The position numbers and the translations under genes are program-made. The notes below the pieces were generated by a model. It worked only from the letters and a program-made list of their open reading frames with translations, was not told the origin of the DNA and searched no databases. Shown here piece after piece: positions 1 to 24,120 of a stretch of 24,120 bases of DNA; position 1 is the first letter of the stretch, and each line of letters opens with the position of its first letter. The stretch comes from a virus (Duplodnaviria > Caudoviricetes), in the IMG/VR virus record IMGVR_UViG_3300025848_000183, positions 1 to 24,120 of that record; one strand, given 5' to 3'.

Positions 1-1
1 T

Positions 2-100
2 TTCCTCGAGCGTGTCAAGCATTTCTTCGATGGACGGGAAGCTCCTGCGGACGACTCGCCAGAGCAAGGAGAGGGCGCAGGCCGCCGCCCGCTCAATCAT
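2..100 (-). CDS. small hypothetical protein, runs off the window edge (MIERAAACALSLLWRVVRRSFPSIEEMLDTLEE...)
   Basis: Translated by hand. ATG at 100 overlaps the end of the 93-191 ORF (ATGATTGA). Frame is open to the window edge. No clear SD. Confidence 0.45.
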   Translation of the reverse strand, partial: MIERAAACALSLLWRVVRRSFPSIEEMLDTLEE

Positions 101-191
101 CGGGCAGTAGCGAGAAGATGGCGCCGGCGACAAGGTTACCGATCGTCGTCCCCAGCGTGACGACCAGGAGCAGCTCTCCGAACGTCAGCAC
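93..191 (-). CDS. 32-aa hydrophobic micro-protein, probable single TM helix (MLTFGELLLVVTLGTTIGNLVAGAIFSLLPDD)
   Basis: GTG start overlaps the upstream stop (GTGCTGA). AAGGGT SD-like element 5 nt upstream. Continuous hydrophobic stretch. Confidence 0.55.
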   Translation of the reverse strand: MLTFGELLLVVTLGTTIGNLVAGAIFSLLPDD

Positions 192-325
192 GGCTTACCC
201 TTGCCGCTCTTTTTCTTCTTCTTCATTTCTTCTTCCCTCCTGCGCCTTCGCCTGGCGAAGACAACGATCTCCGCGATCCCTTTGGCGACCGCGACAACTG
301 CCCTGACGATCGGGACGATGTTCAC
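185..325 (-). CDS. 46-aa amphipathic, highly basic peptide (MNIVPIVRAVVAVAKGIAEIVVFARRRRRREEEMKKKKKSGKGKPC)
   Basis: GTG start in a GTGA overlap with the upstream stop. GGAGG SD 7 nt upstream. Purine-rich Arg/Glu/Lys codon run. Confidence 0.65.
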   Translation of the reverse strand: MNIVPIVRAVVAVAKGIAEIVVFARRRRRREEEMKKKKKSGKGKPC

Positions 326-393
326 CGTCCCGCCTCCGTTGCGATGATCGCCGCGATCGCGATGATCATTCCGAATCCGATGAGCGTGATCAT
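322..393 (-). CDS. 23-aa hydrophobic micro-protein (MITLIGFGMIIAIAAIIATEAGR)
   Basis: ATGA overlap at the start and GTGA overlap at the stop. Almost entirely one TM-like segment, with ATC/GCG codons like neighbouring genes. Confidence 0.55.
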   Translation of the reverse strand: MITLIGFGMIIAIAAIIATEAGR

Positions 394-473
394 GCGACCA
401 TCCAATGAAAGTGGATCTCGGGATAGATGATGTGCATTGTCGGGTAGAACCAGCAACACCAAGCGACGGTCAT
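390..473 (-). CDS. 27-aa Trp/Cys/His-rich micro-protein (MTVAWCCWFYPTMHIIYPEIHFHWMVA)
   Basis: AGGAG SD 6 nt upstream of ATG 473. ATGA overlaps at both ends. The longer 390..713 ORF-track version overlaps a better gene. Confidence 0.55.
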   Translation of the reverse strand: MTVAWCCWFYPTMHIIYPEIHFHWMVA

Positions 474-697
474 CGGCGACTCCTGACCACCGGAGGCTTC
501 ACGGGGAGAAGATCGAGAACACGATCGGCGCGTTCGAGCGCGCGAGCGAGCTTCTCCGGCCAGAGCCAGTCGACCTTCCCGTCGAGCGCCAGATCGATCG
601 CCCGAATCGCCACGACGCTGAGGCTCAGGGTCGTTCGCAGAGCGATCGCGGCTCCAAGCACCGCGCCGGTAACAGCCGCGAGTTCTTCGTTCGTCAT
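470..697 (-). CDS. 75-aa membrane-associated hypothetical protein, possibly holin-like
   Basis: Strong SD GAGGAGG. N-terminal hydrophobic segment (AAVTGAVLGAAIAL...LSLSVVAI) and basic C-terminus. Lies just downstream of the XhlA-like gene. Confidence 0.7.
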   Translation of the reverse strand: MTNEELAAVTGAVLGAAIALRTTLSLSVVAIRAIDLALDGKVDWLWPEKLARALERADRVLDLLPVKPPVVRSRR

Positions 698-711
698 GCT
701 CTTTCCTCCTC

Positions 712-768
712 ACGAGAGCGTACCACGGAGTTCACGGCAAGCCCCTGCACTCTCCCGGTCGCTCTCAT
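712..768 (-). promoter_or_regulatory. long imperfect RNA hairpin directly upstream of the SD of the 75-aa gene; also a 24-codon bridging ORF at 694-768
   Basis: On the minus strand ATGAGAGCG-ACCG-GGAG pairs with CTCC-(G)-TGGT-(A)-CGCTCTCGT, including G-U pairs, with an inner GCAG/TTGC stem. Confidence 0.55.
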
Positions 769-1025
769 GGCACGTCCCCTAGCGCCGAGATGGCCCACGC
801 GACGGCGCCGAGCAGGCCCGAGACAACGAATGCCGCTCCAGCCGCCCACGCGCGGATCCACGCCTGCGTCTTCTCGATCGACGCCACGCGCTCGTCGGTC
901 CGCTCGCACACGGAGAGCCGCGCCTCGAGCCGCTCGTCCATCCGCTCGACGAGGGCGCGCAGTTCCGCAACACGGTCTCCGACCGCCTCGACGCGCTCGA
1001 CCACGGAGACGAGCAGATCGCTCAT
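765..1025 (-). CDS. 86-aa coiled-coil plus C-terminal TM protein (XhlA/holin-associated-like)
   Basis: Heptad-like N-terminal region (VERVEAVGDRVAELRALVERMDERLE...RVASIEKTQAW) followed by a hydrophobic helix (AWAAGAAFVVSGLLGAVAWAI). ATGA overlap with the upstream gene. Confidence 0.7.
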   Translation of the reverse strand: MSDLLVSVVERVEAVGDRVAELRALVERMDERLEARLSVCERTDERVASIEKTQAWIRAWAAGAAFVVSGLLGAVAWAISALGDVP

Positions 1026-2122
1026 GGCGTGATGTACACGATCGCGATGTAGCCGTCCGAGCCCGCGCCGCCGTTACCGCCGTTGCCACCGGCTCCGCCC
1101 GAACCGACTCCGCACCCGCCACCACCGCCGCCGCCACCACCGCCGCCGCCCAAGCCCCCGGTACCGGCCGTGCCGTTTCCGCCGTTGGACCCGGCGTTAC
1201 CAGCACCGGCCCCGCCGCCAGCGCCGCCGGCGGCCGAAGCGCCGCCCACACCGCCGGCAGCAACGGGCATGCCAGGGAATGGTTGAAAATCGTTCACGCG
1301 CACCGACGTGCCTCCGGCCGAGCTACCACCGCCACCTCCCGTGGTGCCGCTTGCCGCTCCGCCGGAACCACCGGCCAACCCAGACAGCAGCAAGCCCGTG
1401 GATGCCTGTAGCTGGGAGTAAGAACCGGAACCGCTCGTGCCGGCACTGCCGGCGTTGCTGGGGGAACCGCCGGCGCCCGCCACGGCAGCTGCACCTGAAT
1501 TGAACGACCCTGTACCCAAAACCTGCCCCGCAGCCCAGGTTGTGCCGATACTAGGGCTCCCGCCCGACGCGCCGCCGCCTCCGGATGTCCCAGCTGACCC
1601 GCCGGAACCAGACGAGCCCCCTCCGCAGCCGGCCACGGTGGTGGGCGTTGGCGAGTTATCGGCGTTACAGGCTTGGAAGATCAAACTCCCGGATCTCGAT
1701 ATCGACGAAACGCCGCCTTGAGAGCCCGCCGCGCCGGCGGAACCGCTGGCCCCGCTGCCGCCACCCGCGCCACCCGCGCCACCCGCGCCACCCGCGCCCA
1801 CTACGAGATCGTACGCCCCCGCGGTAGTCGTCAAAGGGACGCAGCTCAGGCACGCGGATCCTCCCGGACCACCGCCGCGGCCAGCACCGCCACCGCCGCC
1901 CGATGCGCCAGCGTATCCGCCGCCGCCGCCAGCTCCGCCAGCGCCTCCTCCCGCCCCAGGCCGGATGTACACGTAAACGAGATCAACCCCAGTCGGACAC
2001 GTCCACGTGTGCGCGCCAGCGGTGGCAAACTCATCGATTGTCCAAGACATACCTGCTCCTATGGGCAATCCCGCGATCGCCCGGACAACGTACCTGCGAT
2101 AACCTCGCTCAATCCGCCTCAT
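1022..2122 (-). CDS. glycine-rich tail fibre/adhesin-like protein (about 366 aa; alternative start at 2050)
   Basis: Characteristic borders of phage Gly-rich domains (EFATAGAHTWTCPTGVDLVYV...GAGGGAGG and GGAGSDGYIAIVY). ATG 2122 is in an ATGA overlap. Confidence 0.8.
   Translation of the reverse strand: MRRIERGYRRYVVRAIAGLPIGAGMSWTIDEFATAGAHTWTCPTGVDLVYVYIRPGAGGGAGGAGGGGGYAGASGGGGGAGRGGGPGGSACLSCVPLTTTAGAYDLVVGAGGAGGAGGAGGGSGASGSAGAAGSQGGVSSISRSGSLIFQACNADNSPTPTTVAGCGGGSSGSGGSAGTSGGGGASGGSPSIGTTWAAGQVLGTGSFNSGAAAVAGAGGSPSNAGSAGTSGSGSYSQLQASTGLLLSGLAGGSGGAASGTTGGGGGSSAGGTSVRVNDFQPFPGMPVAAGGVGGASAAGGAGGGAGAGNAGSNGGNGTAGTGGLGGGGGGGGGGGGCGVGSGGAGGNGGNGGAGSDGYIAIVYITP
1761..1796. repeat. 9-bp tandem repeat (CCACCCGCG)x4 encoding (AGG)n in the Gly-rich protein
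   Basis: Four perfect copies read directly from the sequence. Confidence 0.9.
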
Positions 2123-2556
2123 AGCCCGGCCTCCGCAGCCCAGATCCGTGCGTCGCGGTGCTGCGCGTCGTACGGGTCGGGTACCCGGCCGCGCATGCAC
2201 GCCGCCATGACGTGGAGCGCCTCGTGCGCGATCGGGTCGTAGTAGTCCTCGCGCGGAATGCCCGGAGCGACGACGATGAGGAAGATGCCGTTGAAGGGAG
2301 CAACGCACCCCTGCTCCTCCTTGAACGCGACGCAGACGCGGTCGAACGTCTCCGGCCCCTGCGCGGGGAGTACGAACGAACTGGCGAGGCAGCCGGAGAC
2401 GTCGGGGAGGCCCGCGTGTTCCCACTCCTCGAGCGCTCGGAGAACCGCGACGTTCTGCGGAAGGACCGGGGCCTCGACCGACACATCTAGGCATGACGAG
2501 CCAAAGGCGACGAGAAACGCCGCCATGGCCGCGGTTCTGCGCCAGATCTTGCTCAC
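2119..2556 (-). CDS. 145-aa putative lipoprotein with HExxH zinc-metallopeptidase motif
   Basis: GTG start in a GTGA overlap. Signal-peptide-like MSKIWRRTAAMAAFLVAFGSS-C. Motif IAHEALH with a downstream His (AQH). Confidence 0.7.
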   Translation of the reverse strand: MSKIWRRTAAMAAFLVAFGSSCLDVSVEAPVLPQNVAVLRALEEWEHAGLPDVSGCLASSFVLPAQGPETFDRVCVAFKEEQGCVAPFNGIFLIVVAPGIPREDYYDPIAHEALHVMAACMRGRVPDPYDAQHRDARIWAAEAGL

Positions 2557-2948
2557 AAACGGTTCTCGCTCATGTACGCGAACAGGTACCCGGTGGTCCC
2601 CGACGAGATGATCGCGAAGTCGGTGACGCTCGCGTCGTTCGGGATGCGGTAGCTGACCGTCGTCCCGGCGACGATCGGGAACCCCGTCGCGTTGTTCGTC
2701 GTGATGACCTCTGATGCGACGCCGCTCGTCTGGTTCAGCGTGACCGAGACAGCGGACCCGCCGAAGCTGATCTGCACGTCCAGGGTCACCGCGACAAAAG
2801 TCACGTACTTCCCCTTCCAACTGGAAGGGATATCGAATCGCTGACTCGCGGCGGTCGTCGCGACGCAGAAGTTGCCGCTCGAACCCGTGATCGCTCCGCT
2901 CATGGGAGGCGCTACGTCAACGGCCGGTTGTTCGTACTGGTGTGCCAT
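2553..2948 (-). CDS. 131-aa small beta-rich putative virion protein
   Basis: Thr/Ser/Val/Gly-rich with alternating beta-strand pattern. AGGA SD upstream. Located in the structural operon. Confidence 0.7.
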   Translation of the reverse strand: MAHQYEQPAVDVAPPMSGAITGSSGNFCVATTAASQRFDIPSSWKGKYVTFVAVTLDVQISFGGSAVSVTLNQTSGVASEVITTNNATGFPIVAGTTVSYRIPNDASVTDFAIISSGTTGYLFAYMSENRL

Positions 2949-2966
2949 GTTGCTATCCTATCACTT

Positions 2967-5900
2967 TCAGCGTTGTTTTCCGCCGCGGTCGCGCTCCGCA
3001 GAAAGGCGCCCGATCGGCTTCGTTGTCTCTGCCGCTTGCCCCGCCACGTCGGCCGCTCCGCGCAGCGCTCTGTGCGTCGCGATAGGAGCGCCCTTCGCGA
3101 TGCGTCGAGCCATCGAACCGATCACCATCGTGAGTGCGCCTGCCGCCTGCTCGCTCGACGCGGTGAGCTCGTCGACGGCTCCGGCCTGCACGAGCTTCGA
3201 GACGTAGTCGCCCAGTCCGTGATCCTCGAGGAACGCGGACAGGTCTTCTCGCATCCTCTGGCTTCCGTTCGCCATTTCGAGAAGCCTCTTTCTCGTGCTC
3301 TCGCGCAGTTGCTCCGGCGTTGTCTTCCGTGGGTCCGTTCCGAACAGCGTGGCGAAGCGATCGACCTCGCGGCGCGCGACGGAGACGGGCGCGTCTCTGA
3401 ATCGCTCGGAAACGTGAGCAGCTACGCGCTCGGACTTCACGGCCTCTGGCGACGTCCTGTTGAAGCCAAACAGCTTTTCCGACTTCGACGCCGCCCGCTC
3501 AGCGGCGCCGGCGGCTCGGAGGGTGGCTGCCGCGTCAGGGCCGACGAACTCCGAGATCTCTGCCCGCTTCTCAGGCGACCCGGCCGCGTACTTCGAGAGG
3601 CCCTCGCGAGCCTCGCTGAGTCGCTCTGGAGCGCGTTTCCCAACGTCGTACCCGAGGGCTTCGGCGACGGGAGAACGCGCCTCTCCCGCCCGCTTCAGTG
3701 CGCGCTGCGACCCGACTTCCACAGGGAGCGCTCGGGACAGCGACTCGGCCGCTCCCGGTGGCGCGTCTGGAGACCCGAGGATGGCGCGGTATGCCGCGTC
3801 TACGTTCTTCGTCGACCGGCCCACTGGCGCACCGAGCGACCCTGGTCCAGATATTCCGAGGATGGTTCGCGCAATCTCCGGCGCGTCCTCCTTTGCGACC
3901 CTCCCCGTCGCGAGGGCCGCGCGGAGCGCGTCTGCGGCCTGCGGGTTCTCTCGGATGGCAGCGAGCAGTTCCTCCGCTTCCCGTGGGGTGAACCCTCCGG
4001 CCGGCATCTCCGTCGAGACGCGGACCAGCGTTCGCTCCAGTGGCTGTCGGATCAGAGGCAGCGACTTCTCCTCCGGCATCACCGCCATGTCCGTTGGGAG
4101 GCCGAACAGCTCGAGACGACCCTTCGCCGCACCAAGGTCTGCCGCGTTCTCCCGCTGAATATCAGCAACATGCTTCGGTCTTGTCGCGACAAGACTCTTG
4201 ACGTATTCCGGATCTCCCGGATTGCTCGGATCGAATGTACTCGGGTCGATTCGCGCGTTTTCTTCCCGAATAGTCTGCTCTAGCTCGCGCACGGAGAGCG
4301 GCCTCGTCGGAGCGTTTCCGGTATCCGCGTGCACCGGTCCCGGAAGCTCCAGCCTACCGAGAGCCTTACCAAGGTACGAAGCTCGACCAGCGGCGACGCC
4401 GGAAATGCCTCCGAGGTGCCTGTCGCGAAGGGCCGCGATAGCTTCCGCCAGACCCTCAGTTGAGATAAGCTCGTCGGCAACTTCGTTTAGTCTTGCGCTC
4501 GAACGTCCGACGGCTCCGGCGTGCTCCGCGAGAAGGTGCTTTCCGACCGGATCGACCGCGGCCTCGGACGCGATCCGCGTGGCAGTAGACGGGACGCCGC
4601 CGGCGTCCTCGAACGACTTCTGAACCGACGCTGCGTAAGGCCCTGCGACCTCGTCAAGCCGAGCGGCGATCTCCGATCTGACAACACGCAGCGCCTCGTC
4701 GACGCCCTGCTCCGCGGCTATTTTTCGGACCGCTGTCGCCGACTCCGCTCGCGGCGCACCAGCGCGAACAAGATCGATGAACGCGGACTGTAGCTCCTCC
4801 GGAAGATCGCTGCCGATCGCTGACCTGGCGACTTCGACCTCGGCCGCGTCGATCGACGTGCGTAACGGTCGTCCCGTCTGCGTCATGAGCGACGACGTTA
4901 CACGCGGTATGGACCGAGAAGCGCCTTCGAGACCAAGAGCCTCCGCCGGGGCTCTGCCGGACGAGATCGCGGACGCCTCGCGGACGTCAGTGGGCGCGAG
5001 ATCGATCGGCCGTGGCTGATCGGCCAGGTCGCCGAGTCCTCCGAGCCGACTCTCCTGCGCCACGAGCCGTTTCGCCACGCCCCCGATCTTCGGATCCGCC
5101 GCGAGCTCGCCGGCGAGCGTTTCCGAGGTGTTAGCGTTCGGCCGATCCGGGTGTTTCATCGCCCGAAGCACGTCCGGGTCGAGCGTCGACTCGTCGATCC
5201 CGCCAAACGGCCCGACGGAGACTCCGGTGCGCTCGGCCTCGGTGGCGGCGCGCACAGCAGGAGATCGTTCCAGCAGGTTCGCTCCTCCGCGCGACGCGCC
5301 TCGTAGAGCGGAGAGGCCGACGGGCAGCATTCCTCCGAGTCCAGCGAGTCCAAGTTCCATGCCAGACGGAGCGGCGTCTTCGCCGGCCAAACCCCTCGAC
5401 GCGGCGCTCGTGCTCAGCCCAATAGCGCCTCCAGCCGCCGCCTGTTTGGCGGTCTCCTTGACCGTCGCCGTGGGGGCAAATAGATGAGAGCCAGCCCCCT
5501 TCGCTCCGGCGCCAAAACCGAGCACAGCTCCGACTCCTGCGCCTGCGAGCGTTGTGCCGGGGTGCTGGCTCTCCTCCTCGCGCATTCGAGAGAGTGTTCC
5601 TTGCGGAATCGCCCCGGACTGTTCTAGGGCGTAGATCGTTGCGTCGGAGAGCATGTTGCCAAGACCGAGCGTTGCCGCCGATCCGAGCCCGCGCACCATG
5701 GCCGGAGCGCGGCTCGCAACCTTCTCGGCCGCGAGCATCGCCGAGTCGGAGGCTCCTTCGGCCTCTCGCCCCTCCAGAAAGACCGCCGGTTGTCCTGACT
5801 CGATGCTCCTGGCGACCGCGTGCGCCCTTCCCGCCTGCTTCTCTCCGTACGTCGCGAACGGGCTGGGGTCGTCGTAAATCGCTCGACCGCCGACGTCCGC

Positions 5901-9606: not shown

Positions 9607-11025
9607 TCAGACCCCCAAGACGTCGAAATCTTCTGAGACGCCGGCTAGGACGAGTTCCGCCGTGTCCATGAACGTGAACCGCCATTGCCTGCGGCGATAC
9701 GATCCGAGCGACCGAAGCTCGACCACTGGGAGTGTATCACCCGTCGTGCCAAGAGACACGCGGACGTCGCTCGACCAGCTTCCGAGGTCGTCGCGCCAAG
9801 AGACGAGGAGCGTCGGAGCTGTCCCGCCGGTCTGCCCGCGCCGCAGGGCGATCCTGAGCGCCTTGCAGTGCTTCATAGCGTCGGTACCACGGTTGATGAA
9901 CCCGGTCTCGACGTATCCCTTGAGGACGGTTCCAGCGTCGGAGTACGCCGTTCGAGAGAGGCTCATGACACGTCCGTCTGTCAGACCAACGAGGTTGTCG
10001 CCGTACCCGATGCGAACCGCGTGGCTCGACACGGGGAAGCGGGTCCAGCCCGTCGTCCCGGTGTCGTACATGTACCACCTAGACCACGTCCCGTTCGAGT
10101 ACACGAAGGTCTGCCCGTCGGTCGGGAATGTCCACACGAGAAGGTCGTACGCGCCTTCGGCGACGCGATACCCGAAGCAGTCGCTGGGCGTCGTGATGTC
10201 GTCGAGAGAGAGCGCGTTCGAGATCACCTCCGGCTCCCTGCCGGAGAAGGAAACGAAACGCATCCGGTCGTCGAGCCAGGCGAATCCGGTGTCCGTCCTG
10301 ACGATCGAGTGCCTTGCCGAGCAACCGATCTCGATCGCTCCGACAAGGGCAAAATCCTGAGTGCTGTCCGGGACAAAAGTTGACGTCGTTGACGTCCCGA
10401 AGGCGAAGATGGCTGACGTCGTGTCTGCGATTGCGATTACCGGGTCGGGTCGCGCAGAAGTGGAGAACTCTCCGGTTTCGTAGCCCGTCCACACCTCGTG
10501 TCCGGCGTACGACGTGGACCCTTCCTGCGTTTGCGAGTAGTAAATCCTGCCACGATAGGCAGCGTTGTTGTTCGTGAGAAGCCGCGTGTCTATCGTGGCG
10601 ATGTGCGTCGACTCGACAGGCCCTCCCGCCAGCGGGGACATAGCGTCCGTCGCCAGCACCACCTTGTACGGGTAGCTTCCGGTTGTGATCCCAAGGATCG
10701 CCTCCGTCTCCACGATGCTAGGTCGAAAGAGCCCGGGCATGCTCCCGAGCGAAGCTGCTCCACCGCTGCCGACGAGGAACATCTCGCCGCTCGCTGCTCC
10801 CTGAGCGAAGGCGTAGAGCTTTCCACCGTTCGTGTATCTGAGGCCGGAGATCTCGTCGGTCGAGAACGCCGTGGAGTAGAACGAGGAGTGCGCGACGATT
10901 CCGGGACGCAGGCGCACAGCCCCGCGAGAATCCGCGAGGACGTTGATCGCGACAGGGCTCGCCCCGGCGAGCTCCTCGTCGTTCGACTCCTCGTTGTTCG
11001 TCAGCGGTACAGGCGCGGTGCTCAT
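9607..11025 (-). CDS. tail hub / packaged-DNA stabilisation protein (P22 gp10-like beta-propeller), 472 aa
   Basis: Family-type motifs SARPDPVIAI, IFAFGTSTT, IEIGCSARHSI, LVWTFPTDGQTFVY and LRSLGSYRRRQWRF. ATG 11025 in an ATGA overlap. Confidence 0.85.
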   Translation of the reverse strand: MSTAPVPLTNNEESNDEELAGASPVAINVLADSRGAVRLRPGIVAHSSFYSTAFSTDEISGLRYTNGGKLYAFAQGAASGEMFLVGSGGAASLGSMPGLFRPSIVETEAILGITTGSYPYKVVLATDAMSPLAGGPVESTHIATIDTRLLTNNNAAYRGRIYYSQTQEGSTSYAGHEVWTGYETGEFSTSARPDPVIAIADTTSAIFAFGTSTTSTFVPDSTQDFALVGAIEIGCSARHSIVRTDTGFAWLDDRMRFVSFSGREPEVISNALSLDDITTPSDCFGYRVAEGAYDLLVWTFPTDGQTFVYSNGTWSRWYMYDTGTTGWTRFPVSSHAVRIGYGDNLVGLTDGRVMSLSRTAYSDAGTVLKGYVETGFINRGTDAMKHCKALRIALRRGQTGGTAPTLLVSWRDDLGSWSSDVRVSLGTTGDTLPVVELRSLGSYRRRQWRFTFMDTAELVLAGVSEDFDVLGV

Positions 11026-12659
11026 GGCGTGAAGTTCGTTCCGTTCGCTTGGAGCCACACGAGGGTTGATCCGTCGTGCGACGCGCAGACGAAGCGCACG
11101 ACCGTTACTTTCGCGTCGTCAGGAACGGTGACGCTGTCGACCTGCACGTTGTTTCCCCAGGTGATCGCGCCAAGCGGCGTGACGCCGGAGTTGTTGTAAA
11201 TGACTAGCGTGAACTCGCTCCCCGGAGTCGCGTTGTTGAAGTTCAACGTCTGCACCGCGCCGCCCGTGCGACGAAGTACAACGACGCCGTACTGGTCGGC
11301 CGGGATCGTGAGCGGCGTCGTGTTGTCAGACGTACGGTAGTACATCTCGGGACGAGTACCGAGGACGACCCGCGTCGCGTCCCACGCCGGAGTGTATGCG
11401 TAAGGCGTGACGCTGGAGTGAAAGACGTTTCCGCTCTCGGTAATGCGCATTGTGGACGAAAGAGTTCCTTCGATCTCGATCCCAGTGATCGTGCCCGACG
11501 AGTCGTAGTTGAACTCATTTCCCGTGATCGCTGCATAAGCGTTGGCAACGTTCGGAATGACGATGCAACTCTGTGCCCCACCTTGCCCAGGCTCGAACCG
11601 TGTGCCGACGACCGTGAGCCGCGGACACCTGACCATCTCGCCTGAGAACGAGTTCGGCGTGGTCAGCCAGCAGTGGTCGAGCCAGATCTGCGCGCTCGTG
11701 CTGTCGCTCGTGACAACGTGTCCGCCCGACGTGCTTCCGATGTCGAAGCGGCAGAAGGAGAAGCGTGCCGTGGATACGACGGCGGACGCCGGATCGTCCC
11801 ACACGTATTTCGTGTAAGACGAATCGCCGAATACGCAGTTCTGTGCCAGAAAATGCGTGCTGCTTACGGAGTACGGCAGGAAGATCGGTTTGCTGTTCGA
11901 CTGCGCATTCTCGAAGCGCAGGTCGCGAAACACCTGACTCCGGTTCGTTGTCCCGCTCGTGAACGTGACGTGAGCCGCGGAGGCGGCGTCCATCTTGATT
12001 AGTGAGACCTTCGGAGACACCCCAGCGAACGAGACTGTCCCAGGCACGTTGAGTGTCGTCGTGATCCTGTACGTCCCCTTCGGGAAGTACACGGTGCCGC
12101 CTCCCGCCGCGCTCGCCGCCGAGATAGCAGCGTTGATCGCCGCCGTGTCGTCGGTTGCTCCGTCGCCCGTCGCGCCAGTTGCGTACGCCGTGCTTTTGAC
12201 GTTGTACAGCATCCCGGAGAGTCGGGACGCGAACGACGACAGTGGAGTTGACGCTCCCTCAAAAAGAACCTCGAAGTCGTCAGCCCCAGCGCTGTTGTCC
12301 CATTTGTCCAGGACAGCCTTCAGCGTCGTCGGTTGACTCGTCGCCGTAGGCGCCCCGGAGTACGCCGTCCCGGTGAAGCTGTCGCTCTTGACCTCGATGT
12401 TCCCCGCTCCGACGCCGGAGACGAACGTCCGAACGGTGTTGCCGCTGCTGTCCTTGCAGGCCACGGTCACCAGGACGTTGTCGACGTACGCGACGGCGCC
12501 GCCGCGAGCGTCGAGCGTGATCGTGTTGCTCGCGTACGAACCGGTCCCCTCGAAGTCAGTGTAGACCGTGGTCGATGTCGCCGTTCCGCGTAGCGTGATG
12601 ACCGCCGTTCCGTTCTCGCAACCCGCGACGCCGGGAACAAGTGCTTCGATCAAATGCAT
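11022..12659 (-). CDS. tailspike with pectate-lyase-3-like right-handed beta-helix, 545 aa
   Basis: YNVK..YATGATGDGATDDTAAINAAI..GGGTVYFPKGTYRI signature. N-terminal virion-binding-like segment (TVYTDFEG...NTITLDARG). C-terminal beta-sandwich-like region. Confidence 0.85.
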   Translation of the reverse strand: MHLIEALVPGVAGCENGTAVITLRGTATSTTVYTDFEGTGSYASNTITLDARGGAVAYVDNVLVTVACKDSSGNTVRTFVSGVGAGNIEVKSDSFTGTAYSGAPTATSQPTTLKAVLDKWDNSAGADDFEVLFEGASTPLSSFASRLSGMLYNVKSTAYATGATGDGATDDTAAINAAISAASAAGGGTVYFPKGTYRITTTLNVPGTVSFAGVSPKVSLIKMDAASAAHVTFTSGTTNRSQVFRDLRFENAQSNSKPIFLPYSVSSTHFLAQNCVFGDSSYTKYVWDDPASAVVSTARFSFCRFDIGSTSGGHVVTSDSTSAQIWLDHCWLTTPNSFSGEMVRCPRLTVVGTRFEPGQGGAQSCIVIPNVANAYAAITGNEFNYDSSGTITGIEIEGTLSSTMRITESGNVFHSSVTPYAYTPAWDATRVVLGTRPEMYYRTSDNTTPLTIPADQYGVVVLRRTGGAVQTLNFNNATPGSEFTLVIYNNSGVTPLGAITWGNNVQVDSVTVPDDAKVTVVRFVCASHDGSTLVWLQANGTNFTP

Positions 12660-13357
12660 CAGCGCCTCCAGGCCGTCGAGTGCTGTACGACCATTTGCGA
12701 CGGGAGCCCGCTCTTGCTACGAGCCATCGCCGCTTTCATCTTAGCCTCAGCAGCCCCACGAAGGTAGCCGACACGGTCGAGCGGAAGGCTGTGGGCGAAC
12801 GCCAGCTTCGACGCCAGTGCGTGGATGATGTAGTCCACCCAGTGCCGCTCGAGGTCGAGCGTCTTGCTGCCATCGTCGTTGTCTCCGAGCAGCTTGTGGA
12901 CTTGCAGGTTGATCGTGCCGGCGGCGTCCGGAACCGGCCAGACGTAAAGCGTCATGGTCGCAAGCCTGTGCAGGTACATCCTGGATGGCCTGCCCCGCGA
13001 GACCTTGTCGGTGAGAGCGTGGTACTCCTCGCGCGAAATCGGCTCGACCCGCGCCTCTCCCGTCGTCTGCCCGGTCGGTAGGTACATCCCGACGCCGGCC
13101 AGGTCGATCGTGTACGTCGGCAGGGTGTACGACGCGGTCCCAGCCGCGACGGTGAGCGAGTAGAAGTCGACGGCGCGGACGACGATTCCGGCCGCCTGCA
13201 GAGCATCGATCTCGAGCTCAAGGAGGTCGCGGCCCAGGCTCGCCTTCTCGTTCGAGACGCTGCCCTGCTCGGCCGGAGTGAGCCCGGCGAGTTGGTACGC
13301 GCGCCAAACGATCGTCTGGATGTCGAGTTCGCGCGTCCTCGTGCTGTTCGCTGTCAT
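12659..13357 (-). CDS. head-tail adaptor/connector protein, 232 aa
   Basis: LDIQTIVWRAYQLAG N-terminus and motifs AGTASYTLP, ISREEY, GRPSRMY, LYVWPVPD, IIHALASKLA typical of podovirus adaptor proteins. Overlaps at both ends. Confidence 0.8.
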   Translation of the reverse strand: MTANSTRTRELDIQTIVWRAYQLAGLTPAEQGSVSNEKASLGRDLLELEIDALQAAGIVVRAVDFYSLTVAAGTASYTLPTYTIDLAGVGMYLPTGQTTGEARVEPISREEYHALTDKVSRGRPSRMYLHRLATMTLYVWPVPDAAGTINLQVHKLLGDNDDGSKTLDLERHWVDYIIHALASKLAFAHSLPLDRVGYLRGAAEAKMKAAMARSKSGLPSQMVVQHSTAWRR

Positions 13358-14286
13358 GCGTAAACCCCCGAGACGTAAGTATGCACGGCAAGCATATCAG
13401 CGGCAGAGAGGGCGCGTCTGAACGCAGCCTGCACGCCGATGCCCTGGTGTGTCAGTCCGGTTGACCCAACGAACTCCTGACGAGTGTTCGAGGCCGAGAA
13501 GACGAAGGCCGCGCTGCCGGCGGACACCCCGTTGATGTACAGCGTTGCCGTCGTGCCGTCACACGACCATCCGATGGTGCGCCACGCCGCGTTGCTGTAG
13601 TTTCCTACCGATATCTCGGCTGTCACTACCGTTGATCCCTGGTCCACGAACACGGAGTTGTAACCGTCGCTCGCTCGCATCTGAGAGCCGACACCGCTAA
13701 CGTCGTTGTCTGGATCCGCGTCGGAGTCGTCCCCGGACCACGCAAGAGCGTCGAGGTTCGACGAGTCCGGCAACACCCTGGCGACGAGCGAGAACGCTCC
13801 GAAGCCTGTCAGGTCCGGGCGGCCACGCCTGATCAGGTAGTCGTACGTGATGCCGTAGCCGTCGAGTCTCCGAGGCGTCCCCACCGTGTGATACCGACGA
13901 TCCGCGATCGCCTGCGCGAAGTCCGGGCCTCCGGCGCGGTCGACCACGCTCGCAGCCCGATCGTCCGCGTCCAGCGTCGCATCCCTGCCTTCGACCCAGT
14001 ACGCGCAAGACCCGAGACTCGACCAGAGGCCGTGACCGCTGGCTGGCGACCATAGAGCGGGGCGTGCGTCCGGCGGGGACAGTTTCGACCGCTTCTGTCC
14101 TCCGGCGGCGTTCAGCCGGTCGAGAGTTACAGCGTCCCGGCCTCTGGCGTCGTCAGGACACGCGAAGCGACCGCTCCCGTCCCGTACGAGACTGCTGCGG
14201 CGATAGGCCACGCCGCAGTAACTGCACTCCGCGGTGTAATCTCCGCGAGGAGCGTTACGTGGCCAGCGCTTTCCGATCGTCCGCAA
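13354..14286 (-). CDS. 310-aa protein: N-terminal Cys-rich Zn-ribbon-like domain fused to a LamG/ConA-like domain
   Basis: TTG start at 14286 with GGAGGG SD. Motif CSYCG...RFAC. C-terminal NAAWRTIGWSCDGTTATLYING and FRRALSAADM LamG-type signatures. Confidence 0.7.
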   Translation of the reverse strand: MRTIGKRWPRNAPRGDYTAECSYCGVAYRRSSLVRDGSGRFACPDDARGRDAVTLDRLNAAGGQKRSKLSPPDARPALWSPASGHGLWSSLGSCAYWVEGRDATLDADDRAASVVDRAGGPDFAQAIADRRYHTVGTPRRLDGYGITYDYLIRRGRPDLTGFGAFSLVARVLPDSSNLDALAWSGDDSDADPDNDVSGVGSQMRASDGYNSVFVDQGSTVVTAEISVGNYSNAAWRTIGWSCDGTTATLYINGVSAGSAAFVFSASNTRQEFVGSTGLTHQGIGVQAAFRRALSAADMLAVHTYVSGVYA

Positions 14287-14313
14287 GACCTGCCCTCCGA
14301 AGATGAAAGAGAG

Positions 14314-14377
14314 GCTCCGAGCGCCCTCCGAGAGGCGGAGAGCAGCGAGAGAGGACGCCCCGGAGGACGCCCGGAGC
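14314..14377 (-). terminator. 20-bp stem-loop after the capsid gene block (terminator-like or processing site)
   Basis: GCTCCGGGCGTCCTCCGGGG pairs with TCTCGGAGGGCGCTCGGAGC using 4 G-U pairs, followed by the pyrimidine tract CTCTCTTTCATCTTC. No classic poly-U tail. Confidence 0.6.
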
Positions 14378-14386
14378 AACGAGGGT

Positions 14387-19074: not shown

Positions 19075-19270
19075 TCTTTCCTCCCAGAGTCCCGAGGACT
19101 CGCTGCCTCTCGTCGAACTTCGCAAACGCCGCTCGCACGGCCGGATCGGAACTGCTCGCCGCGCGAGACAGAAGGTCGGTGAGCGCTGCCGTTGCCTCGC
19201 TCGCGATCTTCTTTCTCAGCCGAACGGTCCCGGGGTGCCTGAGCCACGACCCGTCTTCGTCATCGATCAT
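19052..19270 (-). CDS. 72-aa small helical protein following the portal
   Basis: ATGA overlap with the portal stop. WLRHPGT motif like small post-portal phage proteins. Confidence 0.7.
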   Translation of the reverse strand: MIDDEDGSWLRHPGTVRLRKKIASEATAALTDLLSRAASSSDPAVRAAFAKFDERQRVLGTLGGKNAGAETD

Positions 19271-21387
19271 ACCGGTGCCTCCTCAGGCGGCGGCTCTCCG
19301 CCCATGTCCGGCGGGGCGCCCGCTGCGCTCGGGTCGGGCATCCCGGCTGGTGCGCCAGGAGGCATTCCTGGCATCGGAGGCGGCGCTCCGAACGGAGTGG
19401 TGGGAGGAGGCGGCGGCGGGCCAAGGAGAGGAATCATCTCGTGCTTATTCCTCGCCTCCAGCGCCTTCCTCACCGCGTGATGGACGAACGCCGTGTCCGT
19501 CTGAAGCGGAGGCACGGCCCCGGGCATCTGCAAGAGCTCGTCCGCTTCACTGATCTTCTGCGCCTGACTCGCGAAGCGAAGATCGCTGCGGATCTCCACG
19601 CGGTAGTCGCGTTGGTACATCGACCGGCCCACGACGATCTCCTCGCCGCCTCCGAACTTCGTGTCGTTGAGGTACAGGATCTGCTCGTCGGGGAGGAACT
19701 GCGCGTTGAGCTTCGCGTTGTTCTTCAGGATGCCCTCAACGAAGTCGGCGTAAACTCGGGTGACAACCGAGAGCTGCCTCGTCGCTTGCTCGACGCGAGT
19801 CGACAGGCCTCGGTATGTCTCGCCGCTCTTTCCGGGCTCGCCAGAGAGGACTGCTGGAGCCTGAATCGCGCTCTGGCCCCAGTCGTACATCATCTTGATG
19901 ACGTTCACGAGCTGCTCGTTCGCCGGGCTCGGACGCAGCTCCTTGATCGCGTTTCCGAGGTCGCTCGGGCCGATCCCCTTCACCTTGTTGATCGCGCCGG
20001 GGCGGACACTGAACGGCTGGTCGAACTCGACCCCCTCCGGCGTGATGTAACTGCAAACATTCGCGAGCGTCGCCGCGTCCGTGTACTGACTGAACGCGAC
20101 GTTCGCCGCTGCGTTGAAGTCGCTCTGAATGCGGCCGAACCCGATGCCGAGCGACCCGACGAGCGGCTCGATGCAGACCGCGTGAGTGAATAGTCGGATG
20201 GGCACCATCCGAATCGGGTCAGGAGAGGTCATCGGGTCGTCGGGATTCTCCGCCCAGCCGGGAGGAATCGCCGGCTCGGGCGGCGGGTGAATCATGTTGA
20301 CGTCGATCGGCATCCCGGTCATGGGATCGACCATCCCCGCGGCCTGCTCGACCATCGCCTGATGCTCCGCCTCGGCAGCTCGAGCCGCGCGGTACCGTTC
20401 GAGCTCCTCGTTCTGCCTGTCGAAGCGAGCCCGATCCTGCCAATCTTCTTCCTCGTGAATCTGAAGTAGCAACAGGTTCTTCGTCGTGTAGTCCATGATC
20501 GCCCGGATGAAGCGATCGTTCTCCTGGTTCGGAAGCTCGGCCCAGCCGACGTACTCAATGAGCTTGTACGGCGCTCGCGAGGAGTCGTCCGGCTTCTCGA
20601 TCCCCATCGTCTGCGCCATCGACTCGTGAGCGACCTGCTCAGGATCGTCGTCCCAGCTCGGAGGCTCGCGCGCGATGACCTCGTCGACGCCGGACCACTC
20701 GCCGCGCATCCTCTGTAGCTCGTGCCGGTACCGGTGAAGAACCTTCCCCATGTACGGGACGTCGGAGAGGTCCGGCTCCGTCGTCGTGAAGACGTACGGC
20801 ATAAAGAACTCGTCGCACGTCAGGATGTCGTGCCTGTTCCGCTTCTTCGCCGAGTCGTAATAGCTGTGGCAGACAACGTCACCAGCGGTGTAGAAAAGAA
20901 GCATGCCGCGACTGCCGATCTGTCGTCGGAAGTCCGTGAGCTCGTTCCTGATCTGCCAGTTCCCGTGCTTCGTCAGTAGGTACGCGAGCTGCTCGTCGTC
21001 CGGGGTCATCGGGAGGACGGAGAAGACGTTCGTCCAGTCGCCGAAAAGTTCGCTTGACGAGCGAGCGGTCACTCGTGATAGGGTCTCCAGCATGATCGGC
21101 ACGTTCGCGTTCGCGCTGTCCTCGAAGGGGAAAGATTTCTTCGGAAGATCTCCTGTGAAGATCTTGAAGTCGTTCGCGATCCTCTCGCGATACGCCTCCG
21201 CGCCGCTCCAGGCCGCGTCGAAGTCCTTTCGGACCTGGTCGGCAAGCCTCTTGAGCGCCTTCCTACCCTTCTCCGTCGACGCGAACGTCTCGACGAGATT
21301 CGGAGCCGCCTCGTCGTATACGAGTTCGGCCTCCTTCGGCTCAAAACCGCCTCCGACTTCGAGCTCAACGTCAGTTTCTTCTTCCAT
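19267..21387 (-). CDS. portal protein, 706 aa
   Basis: Directly follows TerL. Motifs KKSFPFEDSANANVP, GSLGIGFG, DAATLAN, VRPGAINKV. Pro-rich C-terminal tail. ATG 21387 with AAAGGT SD. Confidence 0.88.
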   Translation of the reverse strand: MEEETDVELEVGGGFEPKEAELVYDEAAPNLVETFASTEKGRKALKRLADQVRKDFDAAWSGAEAYRERIANDFKIFTGDLPKKSFPFEDSANANVPIMLETLSRVTARSSSELFGDWTNVFSVLPMTPDDEQLAYLLTKHGNWQIRNELTDFRRQIGSRGMLLFYTAGDVVCHSYYDSAKKRNRHDILTCDEFFMPYVFTTTEPDLSDVPYMGKVLHRYRHELQRMRGEWSGVDEVIAREPPSWDDDPEQVAHESMAQTMGIEKPDDSSRAPYKLIEYVGWAELPNQENDRFIRAIMDYTTKNLLLLQIHEEEDWQDRARFDRQNEELERYRAARAAEAEHQAMVEQAAGMVDPMTGMPIDVNMIHPPPEPAIPPGWAENPDDPMTSPDPIRMVPIRLFTHAVCIEPLVGSLGIGFGRIQSDFNAAANVAFSQYTDAATLANVCSYITPEGVEFDQPFSVRPGAINKVKGIGPSDLGNAIKELRPSPANEQLVNVIKMMYDWGQSAIQAPAVLSGEPGKSGETYRGLSTRVEQATRQLSVVTRVYADFVEGILKNNAKLNAQFLPDEQILYLNDTKFGGGEEIVVGRSMYQRDYRVEIRSDLRFASQAQKISEADELLQMPGAVPPLQTDTAFVHHAVRKALEARNKHEMIPLLGPPPPPPTTPFGAPPPMPGMPPGAPAGMPDPSAAGAPPDMGGEPPPEEAPV

Positions 21388-21397
21388 CGCGGACCTT

Positions 21398-22873
21398 TCA
21401 GAAAAGCTTGGATCCGTACCCGAAGCGGCCTCTCGACCCGCCGGACTCCCGCTCGTCTTCCTCTCTCTCCTCGGACGGGAGACCGACTGCCCCCTGCCCG
21501 CGCGAAGCGTACGCGCAGGCATACATTACCATGTCCAGCCAGTGATCCTCGCCGCCCTTCTTCGGCGCCTCGCTGTCGCCAGGATCGACGCCGATCGTCG
21601 GGATCGTCGTAATGCACTTCTTGCAGTTCCGAAAGAACATGATGCCTGGCCGGGTCGTCTGACCTCGATGGTCCTTGAGGCGCGCGAGAAGTCGCTCGGC
21701 GTTCCTCGCCCTCGAACGCTTGTCCGCCCTGCGCCACATCACGCCCTGCGCGGCGAACTCCTCCGCCTTGCTCTTTCCGCTCTCTCCACGCTCCTCCCAG
21801 AGCTGCGTGTCTGCCGGGCCGGTGATCTTCGATCGACCGCCCTTCCACAGACCGAGTTCAATCTCGATCTCCTTGACCCTCTTGGCGACCTCGGTCGCGT
21901 TCATCTCCTTGAAGGAGAACTCCCGTTCGCAATAAAGGTTGTCGTCCTCGTCGAGAGCAAACCATCCGATCGTCCCGTTCGTCTTGTACCCCCAGTCCAT
22001 CGCACGGAAGCGTGGCCAGTCGTTGGGGATCTTGAACGGCTCTACAACGTGGATTGCCTCGATCCAGTCGTCTCCGAAGAAACTGCCTACCGTCGCGTAC
22101 CAGTTGCCGTACAGAAGCGCCTGCCTGATGTGCGCTGGGCTCGACAGTAGCTTCTCCTCGTAGCTCGCAACGAACTCCTTATCCGGGTTGTCGTAGAGCG
22201 TGGCCGGCAGGTACATCCTCGTGCGAACGAAGTTCTCCCCGCTCCGACGCTTCACCTTTCGCTTCAACACGACGCGCCCCTCTGGCGCCTCGTCGACGAA
22301 ATACTCTCTGAGCCAGTTCGGATTTTTCTCGTCGAGGCAAGTTCCTGGGTTGCTCGCGAGACGAACCTTGAGCATCGGGCGAAGGACCGGGTCGCTCGAT
22401 CGGAGACGAGTCGAGATCTGATCGTACTGCTCTCTCGTGAACTGCCTCGCTTCGTCGAAGGCGATGTGCGTGAACTGGCTTGAGTAATACTTCTCCCAGT
22501 CGTTTTCGCGTTGGCAGTGGCCGAACTGAAACTTGTACCCCGAACGGAACTGCCACATGTGGCGCTGACGATCGTACTTTGCGTCTGGGTCGATGCGCGG
22601 AAAGATGCGTTCAGAACGCGCAATCGTTTCCTCGAGCGTGGGGAACTCCCGGCGAAGCGAGAGCGCCCATCCCGTCGAGTCTCCCCACCTTTGCCTGTTC
22701 GGATGCTTCGGATCGAGGCACCTGTTGTGCTCACTGATGATCTGCGGGACAACGTCCATGAGCAGGACGAGCGTTTTCCCAGGTCCAGCCGCTCCAGCCC
22801 CGAGAAGCTCGTCGACCGTCGAGCTGTGAAACTCGTTTCCCCAGTCGCTCGCGGTGTAGAGAGGGCCGTCCAT
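21398..22873 (-). CDS. terL: terminase large subunit, 491 aa
   Basis: Walker A GAGAAGPGKT, Walker B HIAFDEA, coupling motif LASNPG, PATLYDNP, and nuclease acidic motifs RAMDWG and EDHWLD. ATG 22873 in a TGATG overlap. Confidence 0.95.
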   Translation of the reverse strand: MDGPLYTASDWGNEFHSSTVDELLGAGAAGPGKTLVLLMDVVPQIISEHNRCLDPKHPNRQRWGDSTGWALSLRREFPTLEETIARSERIFPRIDPDAKYDRQRHMWQFRSGYKFQFGHCQRENDWEKYYSSQFTHIAFDEARQFTREQYDQISTRLRSSDPVLRPMLKVRLASNPGTCLDEKNPNWLREYFVDEAPEGRVVLKRKVKRRSGENFVRTRMYLPATLYDNPDKEFVASYEEKLLSSPAHIRQALLYGNWYATVGSFFGDDWIEAIHVVEPFKIPNDWPRFRAMDWGYKTNGTIGWFALDEDDNLYCEREFSFKEMNATEVAKRVKEIEIELGLWKGGRSKITGPADTQLWEERGESGKSKAEEFAAQGVMWRRADKRSRARNAERLLARLKDHRGQTTRPGIMFFRNCKKCITTIPTIGVDPGDSEAPKKGGEDHWLDMVMYACAYASRGQGAVGLPSEEREEDERESGGSRGRFGYGSKLF

Positions 22874-24120
22874 CACTCCTCGTTCCAGGCGATGGAGACC
22901 GCAGCCGTCACCGTTCCGGCGCTCGTTCCAACAACGATCGTGACGACGTCGTCGCTTGACACGACGATGTCCATCGACTTGAGGTCGATCACCGCTTGTC
23001 CGTTCTTCGCCAGCGCTTGAACAGCAAGGTACGTTCCTCCTGATAGCGCCGTCGCGCTCGTGTCGTAGTGTACGCAGCTCTCGTTCCAAGCGCTGAGCCA
23101 CTGAGCACCGGTCAGGGTCGCGTTCATGTAGAAGTAGACCGTGACGGGGGCGGACCCAGAACCGTCCGTTCCGACGCTCGCACGGAGCGGGAGAACCTCG
23201 CGGAAGTTGATCCGTCCTCCGAAGGTCTTCCCGTTCCTGATGCTCAGGACGGGAACTGCACTAGAGATTCCGCCCTTTGTCGCGGTCGCAGAGAACGGGT
23301 TCCTGACGTGAACGCGGCGACCTTCGACGGCGACGTATCCGCTGGCGCCTTTCACCGTGAGATTTGTCGTTGATCCTAGCGACGCTGCCGCCCAACCGAG
23401 CTTCATCGTCGGGTTTCTGATGCTCGGCTTCGTGTTCGCGTTCGCGTACTTGATCCGGTGAACCAGAGCGAACTGTCCCTCGCCAGGATCTTCGACGTAG
23501 AAGTCGATGTTGCCAGCTCCGAGCCACTGCATCTGGATTTTGTAGACGTTGAGCTTCGTCGTATCCAGGGTCATCCCGGACGGACCGGTACCGTCCATTT
23601 TGTCGACATTCCAGTCAGATTGCGCTGTCCACGTCTCCGTGACCACGGCTCCCGCGCGAGTCGCCGCGAACGTCCCTGCCGCCGTCCCCGTGCTTGAGAA
23701 GGAGAATGTTCCGGACTTCGCTCCGACCGCCGTGGCGACGAAGACGACGGTGGCGCCAACCTGAAACGCCGACCATCCAGCGAAAGAGTCAGCGCCGATC
23801 TTCGCGGCCGTCGCCGTTGTGCTGCCGCTGGAAAGGCTGACGTTCGTTGCGACGCCAGCGAGGGTAACCGTCCCGGTCTCCGCTCCGCCGGCGCCGACCG
23901 TTACCGTGAGCGTGCGAATCTCGAGCGCGCCCTCTGTTCCGCGCAAGATGCCAAAACTCGTCCCGTTGTACCCGAAACAGAGCGAGTTCTCCGACGTGAA
24001 CAGACCGGCCTGCTGAAGACTGCTGGCCACGCCGGCCGTGAACATCGCCGTGAACCGAGCCATGTACCCCTGGCCGGCACGGTACCTTCCGTCGCGACGA
24101 GAGCGAACGACGCCGTACCC
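22873..24120 (-). CDS. beta-rich putative structural protein (>415 aa), start lies beyond the window
   Basis: Frame stays open to the edge (GYGVVRSRRDGRYRAGQGYMARF...). Thr/Gly/Ala/Ser-rich. QSDWNVDKMDGTGPSG..LD..KLNVYKIQMQWLGAG pattern suggests a ConA-like beta-sandwich. Confidence 0.75.
   Translation of the reverse strand, partial: GYGVVRSRRDGRYRAGQGYMARFTAMFTAGVASSLQQAGLFTSENSLCFGYNGTSFGILRGTEGALEIRTLTVTVGAGGAETGTVTLAGVATNVSLSSGSTTATAAKIGADSFAGWSAFQVGATVVFVATAVGAKSGTFSFSSTGTAAGTFAATRAGAVVTETWTAQSDWNVDKMDGTGPSGMTLDTTKLNVYKIQMQWLGAGNIDFYVEDPGEGQFALVHRIKYANANTKPSIRNPTMKLGWAAASLGSTTNLTVKGASGYVAVEGRRVHVRNPFSATATKGGISSAVPVLSIRNGKTFGGRINFREVLPLRASVGTDGSGSAPVTVYFYMNATLTGAQWLSAWNESCVHYDTSATALSGGTYLAVQALAKNGQAVIDLKSMDIVVSSDDVVTIVVGTSAGTVTAAVSIAWNEE

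Follow-up and report, generated by a model that had tools for sequence, protein, structure and literature searches.

The minus strand of the first 768 nt of an uncultured phage sequence carries a chain of seven overlapping ORFs, which is a real, unusually dense, and mixed small-gene tail of a late operon. We assign a probability of about 0.5 to the reading that a podophage late operon ends in these small genes and that a holin-like gene would act in lysis together with membrane partners of 75, 23, and 32 aa. Small coupled membrane genes at a phage lysis site are a known arrangement, of which this is a denser variant; it does not amount to proof of a new lysis system. The window is the entire 24,120-nt virus record (IMGVR_UViG_3300025848_000183), and its features in and next to the chain are as follows:

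2119..2556, minus strand: lipoprotein-like protein with an HExxH motif, 145 aa (phrog_16003, E 0.0026)
1022..2050, minus strand: glycine-rich putative tail-fiber gene, sharing an ATGA overlap with the holin-like gene
765..1025, minus strand: XhlA-type holin-like gene, 86 aa, heading the chain
694..768, minus strand: ORF1, 24 aa, hydrophilic; codon score −3.1, second of six frames
470..697, minus strand: ORF2, 75 aa; ribosome site −12.2
390..473, minus strand: ORF3, 27 aa; AGGAG site −6.9; best of six frames
322..393, minus strand: ORF4, 23 aa, predicted single-pass membrane peptide; hydropathy 2.5, codon score 8.6
185..325, minus strand: ORF5, 46 aa; GTG start at 325; GGAGG site kept in variants
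185..226, minus strand: nested in-frame peptide in ORF5, 13 aa, Lys/Gly-rich, ending GKGKPC
93..191, minus strand: ORF6, 32 aa, predicted single-pass membrane peptide with an acidic end
1..100, minus strand: ORF7, cut by the window end; in full 48 aa (10849–10995 of a second assembly, L217)

Genome setting and geometry of the chain

All long genes of the window lie on the minus strand. The virion module (terminase, portal, capsid, SU10-type adaptor, tail spike, and head-closure protein) was recognized using Pfam and PHROGs and is, judged by these matches, of podophage type. The relatives bearing end repeats are 44–49 kb long; therefore, about half of the genome lies outside the window. Most of window 1–3000 was present in three freshwater metagenome runs, and run X1 was identical to the window over 1–1108 and may be its source; no RNA data set was listed among the runs carrying this region. 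A host call from genome-bin contigs was discarded as unreliable, as four contigs pointed to four different phyla or classes. Window 1–3000 showed neither promoter- nor terminator-like sites. An RNA element in the chain region was rejected, as window 1–3000 had no Rfam match and the folding of window 1–800 was ordinary (z −0.22).

Outside the chain, the longest frames of the portal (19267–21522) and terminase (21398–23101) on the minus strand overlapped by more than 100 nt (21387–21522); their true starts are probably internal ATGs, giving 706 and ~491 aa with short gaps. A 341-aa minus-strand frame (13354–14379) resembled by eye, in its middle, a ~95-aa Cys-rich protein of relatives and had a weak lectin/glucanase fold match (PF13385) in its C-terminal part, and it is possibly a small zinc-binding gene fused to a fiber domain.

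The original prediction described seven consecutive junctions at which each start overlaps the preceding stop, and all of them were found in the sequence: ATGA at 765–768, 694–697, 470–473, and 390–393; GTGA at 322–325; GTGCTGA at 185–191; and an overlap at 93–100. The predicted lengths of 24, 75, 27, 23, 46, and 32 aa were likewise correct, and the last ORF, more than 33 aa within the window, is 48 aa in L217. An additional eighth ATGA (1022–1025) joins the tail-fiber gene to the XhlA-like gene.

The chance occurrence of such chains was estimated from dinucleotide shuffles, counting ORFs of 12–100 aa with overlaps of 1, 4, 7, or 8 nt. A chain of seven arose from the first start (768) in 2 of 5,000 shuffles; when any start within the 768 nt was allowed, 4 of 5,000 had one. 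A chain of at least seven arose somewhere in the shuffled whole 24 kb in 7 of 200 cases, and one of seven or more was present on 1 of 81 antisense strands of related loci. The claim that the junctions are unlikely by chance holds well at this start and less well genome-wide, where the significance of the chain alone is only moderate. Between genes of at least 100 aa in the phage group, up to 355 of 906 junctions overlapped in this way, which is an upper estimate because the gene caller rewards overlaps; overlap coupling is the usual gene arrangement of this group.

Coding evidence and peptide properties

Contigs of four runs were aligned to window 1–1300, and 25 substitutions and one 3-nt deletion were identified, all within 31–331. 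In the proposed frames, 16 of the 25 SNPs were synonymous against 7.3 expected (p ~1e-4) when each change was redrawn among the same-base sites of its own ORF; 17 of the 25 stemmed from one contig of depth 2.9, and excluding that contig, 5 of 8 were synonymous. Synonymous changes accounted for 2/2 SNPs in ORF4, 2/4 in ORF5, 5/7 in ORF6 (p 0.01), and 7/12 in ORF7 (p 0.02), and the two non-synonymous changes in ORF6 were both conservative. No SNP created a stop, the deletion (at 210, in ORF5) was in frame, no frameshift was observed, and the start/stop overlaps and the GGAGG site ahead of ORF5 were unchanged. Conservation of frames, which had been put forward as a check on the chain, was thus seen among strain variants for ORF4 to ORF7; the variant evidence covers these four distal ORFs only, with no variants within the 24-, 75-, and 27-aa ORFs (ORF1 to ORF3).

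Scored with the phage's codon usage, the proposed frame ranked first of six in five of the seven ORFs, by a narrow margin in ORF2 (6.0 vs. 5.1). The 24-aa and 48-aa ORFs ranked second with negative scores, and ORF7 (−3.9) has no ribosome site and overlaps the next gene by 29 nt. The three strong Shine–Dalgarno sites predicted (GAGGAGG, AGGAG, and GGAGG) were all present, with duplex energies of −12.2, −6.9, and −9.5 kcal/mol, compared with −3.3 to −9.3 kcal/mol for 14 long genes. Including that of a nested ATG at 226, four strong ribosome sites were located at the correct spacing. We consider ORF4, ORF5, and ORF6 very likely to be genes and ORF2, ORF3, and ORF7 likely to be genes. ORF1 is the weakest member and doubtful as a gene; it may be a chance spacer frame carrying the ribosome site of ORF2, and the odds that it alone is a chance frame are about even.

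None of the seven micro-ORFs had a meaningful match in Pfam, PHROGs, or NCBIfam, and no homolog was found in 82 related loci or in 31 further loci; compared with 708 small proteins of relatives, no score exceeded those of shuffles. Searches with ORF2 yielded no homolog, an Atlas score of 0.82 being a lead only, and those with ORF5 returned only unnamed Atlas clusters (0.85–0.86).

Membrane calls were made from the best 19-residue Kyte–Doolittle value and the summed Hessa scale. The values were clear for the 23-aa peptide (2.5/−2.3), likely for the 32-aa peptide (2.0/+1.2), and marginal for the 75-aa ORF (1.9/+2.1). In the 46-aa ORF (2.0/+5.3), charges interrupt the hydrophobic N-terminal half, which is followed by an Arg run and a basic, Lys-rich tail with a terminal Cys (net charge +11). 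The 48-aa (0.9/+9.8), 27-aa (0.7/+9.5), and 24-aa (−0.1/+16.7) peptides were not membrane-spanning. By hydropathy, the description of the chain as encoding membrane-type peptides holds for about three of seven (23, 32, and marginally 75 aa) and not for the whole chain, three or four of the ORFs not being membrane-spanning. ORF2 combines its marginal N-terminal helix with an amphipathic C-terminal helix (moment 0.93, shuffle p 0.011), and its product is a candidate partner of the holin-like protein. ORF3 is rich in Trp, Cys, His, and aromatic residues, with a GC3 of 0.71 vs. 0.36 and 0.43.

The 13-aa peptide nested in ORF5 was absent from the original prediction. Its ATG at 226 has its own GGAGG site (−10.8, comparable to any in the window), and its frame scored best of six. 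The same last six residues end a free-standing 26-aa ORF in an unrelated phage (L083). Similar ORFs of 23–32 aa occur in nine related loci (seven distinct peptides), where they overlap the next gene by one base, and they directly follow the capsid gene in all eight loci showing that gene. No such ORF follows the capsid gene in the window, where only 12 nt lie behind it. When viral contigs were scanned for a KKGKGC-stop tail, 111 loci were returned; of the 80 that were read (L105–L184), 27 had no in-frame start and the remaining 53 yielded 42 different ORFs, of which 32 were ≤40 aa. Nearly all of these ORFs were Lys/Gly/Pro/Met-rich upstream of the forced tail, and many had ribosome sites, in a scan that covered this single tail. 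The 13-aa peptide is, like members of this class, short and basic, with its own ribosome site and a terminal Cys; its similarity to the class is within the shuffle range, and low complexity prevents a homology claim. PHROGs contained no match to any of three such peptides taken from relatives. A full-text search for the motif in three spellings, with subscription papers mostly outside its coverage, returned nothing relevant and no description of the class. The 13-aa peptide is probably made as a product of its own and belongs to a broader class of phage micro-genes; its role would be nucleic-acid binding and not lysis.

In related phages, Lys/Gly/Pro-rich micro-genes with KGKGC-like ends were noted directly behind the capsid gene at L064:7156–7239, L065:2165–2242, L068:7616–7714, L071:7492–7572, L073:2289–2366, L077:7536–7613, and L081:7738–7812, and such genes recur in many viral contigs unrelated to the window. 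ORFs of the KGKGC type spanned 9–48 aa, and some were the tails of basic proteins of 91–112 aa. A 160-nt contig (run X1, record 2) matched only window 190–226 (37 nt with 6 differences) and may be another phage's micro-gene copy or a low-complexity match. The candidate locus L084 was rejected, as the peptide-tail pattern arose there by chance with no fitting ORF.

The lysis site in relatives and the sequence beyond the chain

The 86-aa protein heading the chain matched the holin family phrog_689 (E 1.7e-5 over 71 residues), and its score against Pfam XhlA (PF10779) was 17.3 bits, under the curated cut-off of 34.7. It has a charged helical N-terminal part and a single C-terminal hydrophobic helix (residues 64–82), which agrees with the size and shape of XhlA proteins (70–90 aa, a soluble helical N-terminal part, and a single C-terminal helix). 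Among 76 candidates, only the protein itself was matched. The gene at 1022..2050 had no Pfam or PHROGs family match and is a putative tail fiber from its composition and position. The 145-aa HExxH protein just before it could be an envelope peptidase and was considered as a candidate for the missing endolysin; its single-sequence fold model (pLDDT 48) gave no fold match and is too poor to name it. Small lipoproteins near the lysis site were also seen in the extensions of L042, L044, and L003, some with similar metal-binding words.

Relatives were obtained by alignment of the head-closure protein (80 loci, 32–44% identity). A single-query search of viral contigs with this protein gave no homologs, alignment of the 131-aa gene against viral contigs gave no homologs, and cultured phages matched by DNA only in pieces of 37–47 nt within a diphosphohydrolase gene. 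In many relatives, a ~130-aa gene and tail fibers are followed by coupled small hydrophobic genes, small lipobox genes (L033, L034, L062, and L074, with L086 and L092 excluded from the lipobox comparison), and an endolysin of the CHAP, glucosaminidase, M15 peptidase, or lysozyme type. An endolysin-type gene was identified in 9 of 20 extended regions, eight by Pfam (E ≤ 0.005, some under the curated cut-off) and one (L022) by PHROGs, and these genes adjoin coupled hydrophobic genes of 40–120 aa and lipobox genes. Profiles detected no endolysin in the other 11 regions, two of which look endolysin-like by eye and some of which end early; therefore, position does not fix function. The gene runs include 76-67-54-227 aa in L033 and 117-32-26-72-146 aa in L052, in which a 26-aa membrane peptide is coupled between the 32-aa ORF and the 72-aa gene, ahead of the M15 peptidase.

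By gene order, the chain occupies the lysis site of this phage group, as the original prediction had expected. Called genes of ≤50 aa in a same-strand run numbered zero or one in 19 of 20 relatives and four in the remaining one, and the window has six within a run of seven; micro-genes at the lysis site are not unique to the window, which is denser. The window shares with the loci L022, L033, L034, L052, and L062 the site after a ~130-aa gene and a tail fiber, ATGA/GTGA coupling, and small membrane, lipobox, and basic peptides. The relatives' loci, however, often have an adjacent endolysin, whereas the window runs into a PF18909 gene. Basic small peptides were also observed at the relatives' lysis site (54 aa at L092:4268–4432, reversed; 40 aa at L094:4903–5025; and 14 aa at L030:20252–20296), where basic micro-genes recur.

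The sequence beyond the window was provided by L217, retrieved in a metagenome scan with the 131-aa gene; it is 99.95% identical over 10,948 nt, extends 885 nt further, and is possibly not independent of the window's sample. In L217, ORF7 overlaps a dATP/dGTP diphosphohydrolase gene by 29 nt (PF18909, E 5e-30; phrog_801), and the stretch 10967–11833 contains this gene, then an ORF of 84 aa, and finally the beginning of a phrog_284-type gene, which is probably a metallophosphoesterase. Profile searches recognized no endolysin in the window, nor in the additional 885 nt. The gene that follows ORF7 also drew the labels "endolysin; inhibits RNA polymerase" (phrog_2252 and phrog_5033), which were dismissed as an artifact of naming, as its best matches were phrog_801 and PF18909; the PHROGs "endolysin" label on part of the diphosphohydrolase family can mislead annotation. 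PF18909 was found in none of 26 relatives, the control genomes of that search being equally blank. In this layout, the chain bridges the holin-like gene and a nucleotide-metabolism block; the diphosphohydrolase/phrog_284 block may serve nucleotide-pool control or DNA modification.

This layout bears on the strongest alternative, which we regard as possible and clearly less probable than a lysis role: the ORFs would be real but form a fast-turnover block of unrelated accessory micro-genes (for host modulation, superinfection exclusion, or as young genes) between the tail and nucleotide-metabolism modules, with no part in lysis. The end of the chain at the PF18909 and phrog_284-like genes rather than at an endolysin fits this alternative, as do the chemical mixture of the peptides, their lack of homologs, and the unrelated phage L236, in which a tail fiber, a hydrophobic 95-aa gene, small ORFs, a phrog_284 protein, and a diphosphohydrolase follow in the same order. 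However, the chain and the holin-like gene to which it is directly coupled occupy the family's lysis site, and three of its seven peptides are of the membrane type, as in the relatives' lysis loci.

Proposed mechanism and known lysis systems

In the preferred reading, that of membrane partners acting with the holin-like protein, the micro-genes would be translated by termination and re-initiation through stop–start coupling, and late expression is suggested by their common strand and by window 1–3000 being free of promoter- or terminator-like sites. The 86-aa protein would be a holin component. The 75-, 23-, and 32-aa peptides would be its inner-membrane partners in setting or triggering lysis, cooperating as in the XhlA/XhlB or LysF1a/LysF1b pairs, and the other peptides of the chain would be non-membrane accessories. 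The endolysin would be encoded in the unassembled half of the genome. Position and peptide chemistry are what point to this lysis role.

Several known systems resemble the proposed one in part. In PMC6316719, XhlA-type proteins are described as having one C-terminal helix and being lethal only with a second holin. The XhlA/XhlB proteins of Bacillus PBSX and SPP1 gp24.1/gp26 covered there are likewise encoded by coupled late genes, with a ~90-aa one-helix protein needing a second small membrane protein. Unlike in those systems, no two-helix XhlB-type holin and no adjacent endolysin were seen here, the partners would be single-helix peptides of 23–75 aa, and the Pfam score is below the cut-off. 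Lysis cassettes can contain as many as four membrane genes (PMC9671378), and two further reports (PMC13056207, 10.64898/2026.08.27.747656) state that mycobacteriophage holin-like proteins need single-helix regulators controlling lysis. The Gordonia and Mycobacterium cassettes (LysF1a/LysF1b and LysA2a/LysA2b) resemble the chain in having several unrelated small membrane genes in one run, poor sharing of the genes between phages, single-helix regulators, and the possibility that lysis genes lie at separate places in the genome. No sequence similarity to these cassettes was detected, and the chain differs from them in that its peptides are shorter and alternate with micro-genes of non-membrane type. 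Multi-membrane cassettes have been published for phages of Gram-positive or mycobacterial hosts, a host group that may differ from that of the window phage. As in such cassettes, at least two adjacent small membrane genes are present (86, 75 (marginal), 23, and 32 aa); an adjacent endolysin was found in neither the window nor the L217 extension, with about half of the genome lying outside.

The original prediction went further, proposing a micro-peptide cassette possibly standing in for holin and spanin genes. The holin part is not supported, an XhlA-type gene (phrog_689) already heading the chain, and a single membrane-peptide cassette is contradicted by the three to four ORFs that are not membrane-spanning and by the run of the chain into the PF18909 gene. 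Spanins are recognized by a hydrophobic region with a lipobox Cys or by an N-terminal anchor with a long periplasm-spanning helical domain. The chain has a single lipobox-like word, which starts no lipoprotein signal because the first seven residues of ORF7 ahead of it (residue 8) form no hydrophobic region; the longest candidate for an anchor and long helix is the 75-aa ORF, with ~45 residues past its marginal helix; and no spanin profile in Pfam, PHROGs, or NCBIfam matched. The chain carries no spanin signature, and the replacement of spanins is only a lead, provided by one basic 46-aa ORF. The bold version, in which the holin-like protein and membrane or cationic micro-peptides of 23–75 aa replace spanins and perhaps the endolysin, and one gene gives a 46-aa membrane-anchored form and a free 13-aa form belonging to a widespread class of Lys-rich, Cys-ended phage micro-peptides, is unlikely.

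A related alternative, which we judge quite unlikely, is that the phage has no spanins and that ORF5 disrupts the outer membrane like gp28 of phiKT, making the chain a peptide-based lysis system. According to 10.1101/515445, gp28 is a small basic peptide encoded near a holin gene with no recognizable spanins around it, and disruptin candidates are those of <80 aa with a net charge of +4 or more. ORF5 (charge +11) falls within this cut-off, and the chain has no lipobox gene where several relatives (L033, L034, L062, and L074) have one. However, the same report describes the cut-off as noisy, with 528 candidates in 91 genomes, and gp28 as hydrophilic with spread basic clusters, whereas ORF5 consists of a hydrophobic half and a separable basic tail. 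Its amphipathic moment (0.62) was no higher than that of shuffles (p 0.74), and 7 of its 11 net charges sit in the nested 13-aa peptide, the like of which relatives carry as a separate gene beside the capsid genes. Moreover, gp28 is located between an endolysin and a holin, and no endolysin was found here. It is very improbable that GC-rich sequence with few stops and many ATGA/GTGA words gave rise to most of the chain by chance and that most of its frames go untranslated: chains of seven do occur in whole-window shuffles and on an antisense strand, and two ORFs (24 and 48 aa) have negative codon scores, but the anchored null, the synonymous excess, the four well-spaced ribosome sites, and the ordinary folding without an RNA family stand against it, and it is largely refuted for ORF4 to ORF7.

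Small phage genes are common, with over 2 million counted (PMC11323111), and a run of them is by itself not surprising. If the membrane peptides act in lysis, the chain would represent, for an uncultured group of podophages, a lysis locus whose peptides fall below the lengths that gene callers accept, and these peptides would be candidates for how spanin-less phages break the outer membrane. The Cys-ended, Lys/Gly-rich micro-gene class may matter more than the chain itself, and it is the lead most worth a separate look.
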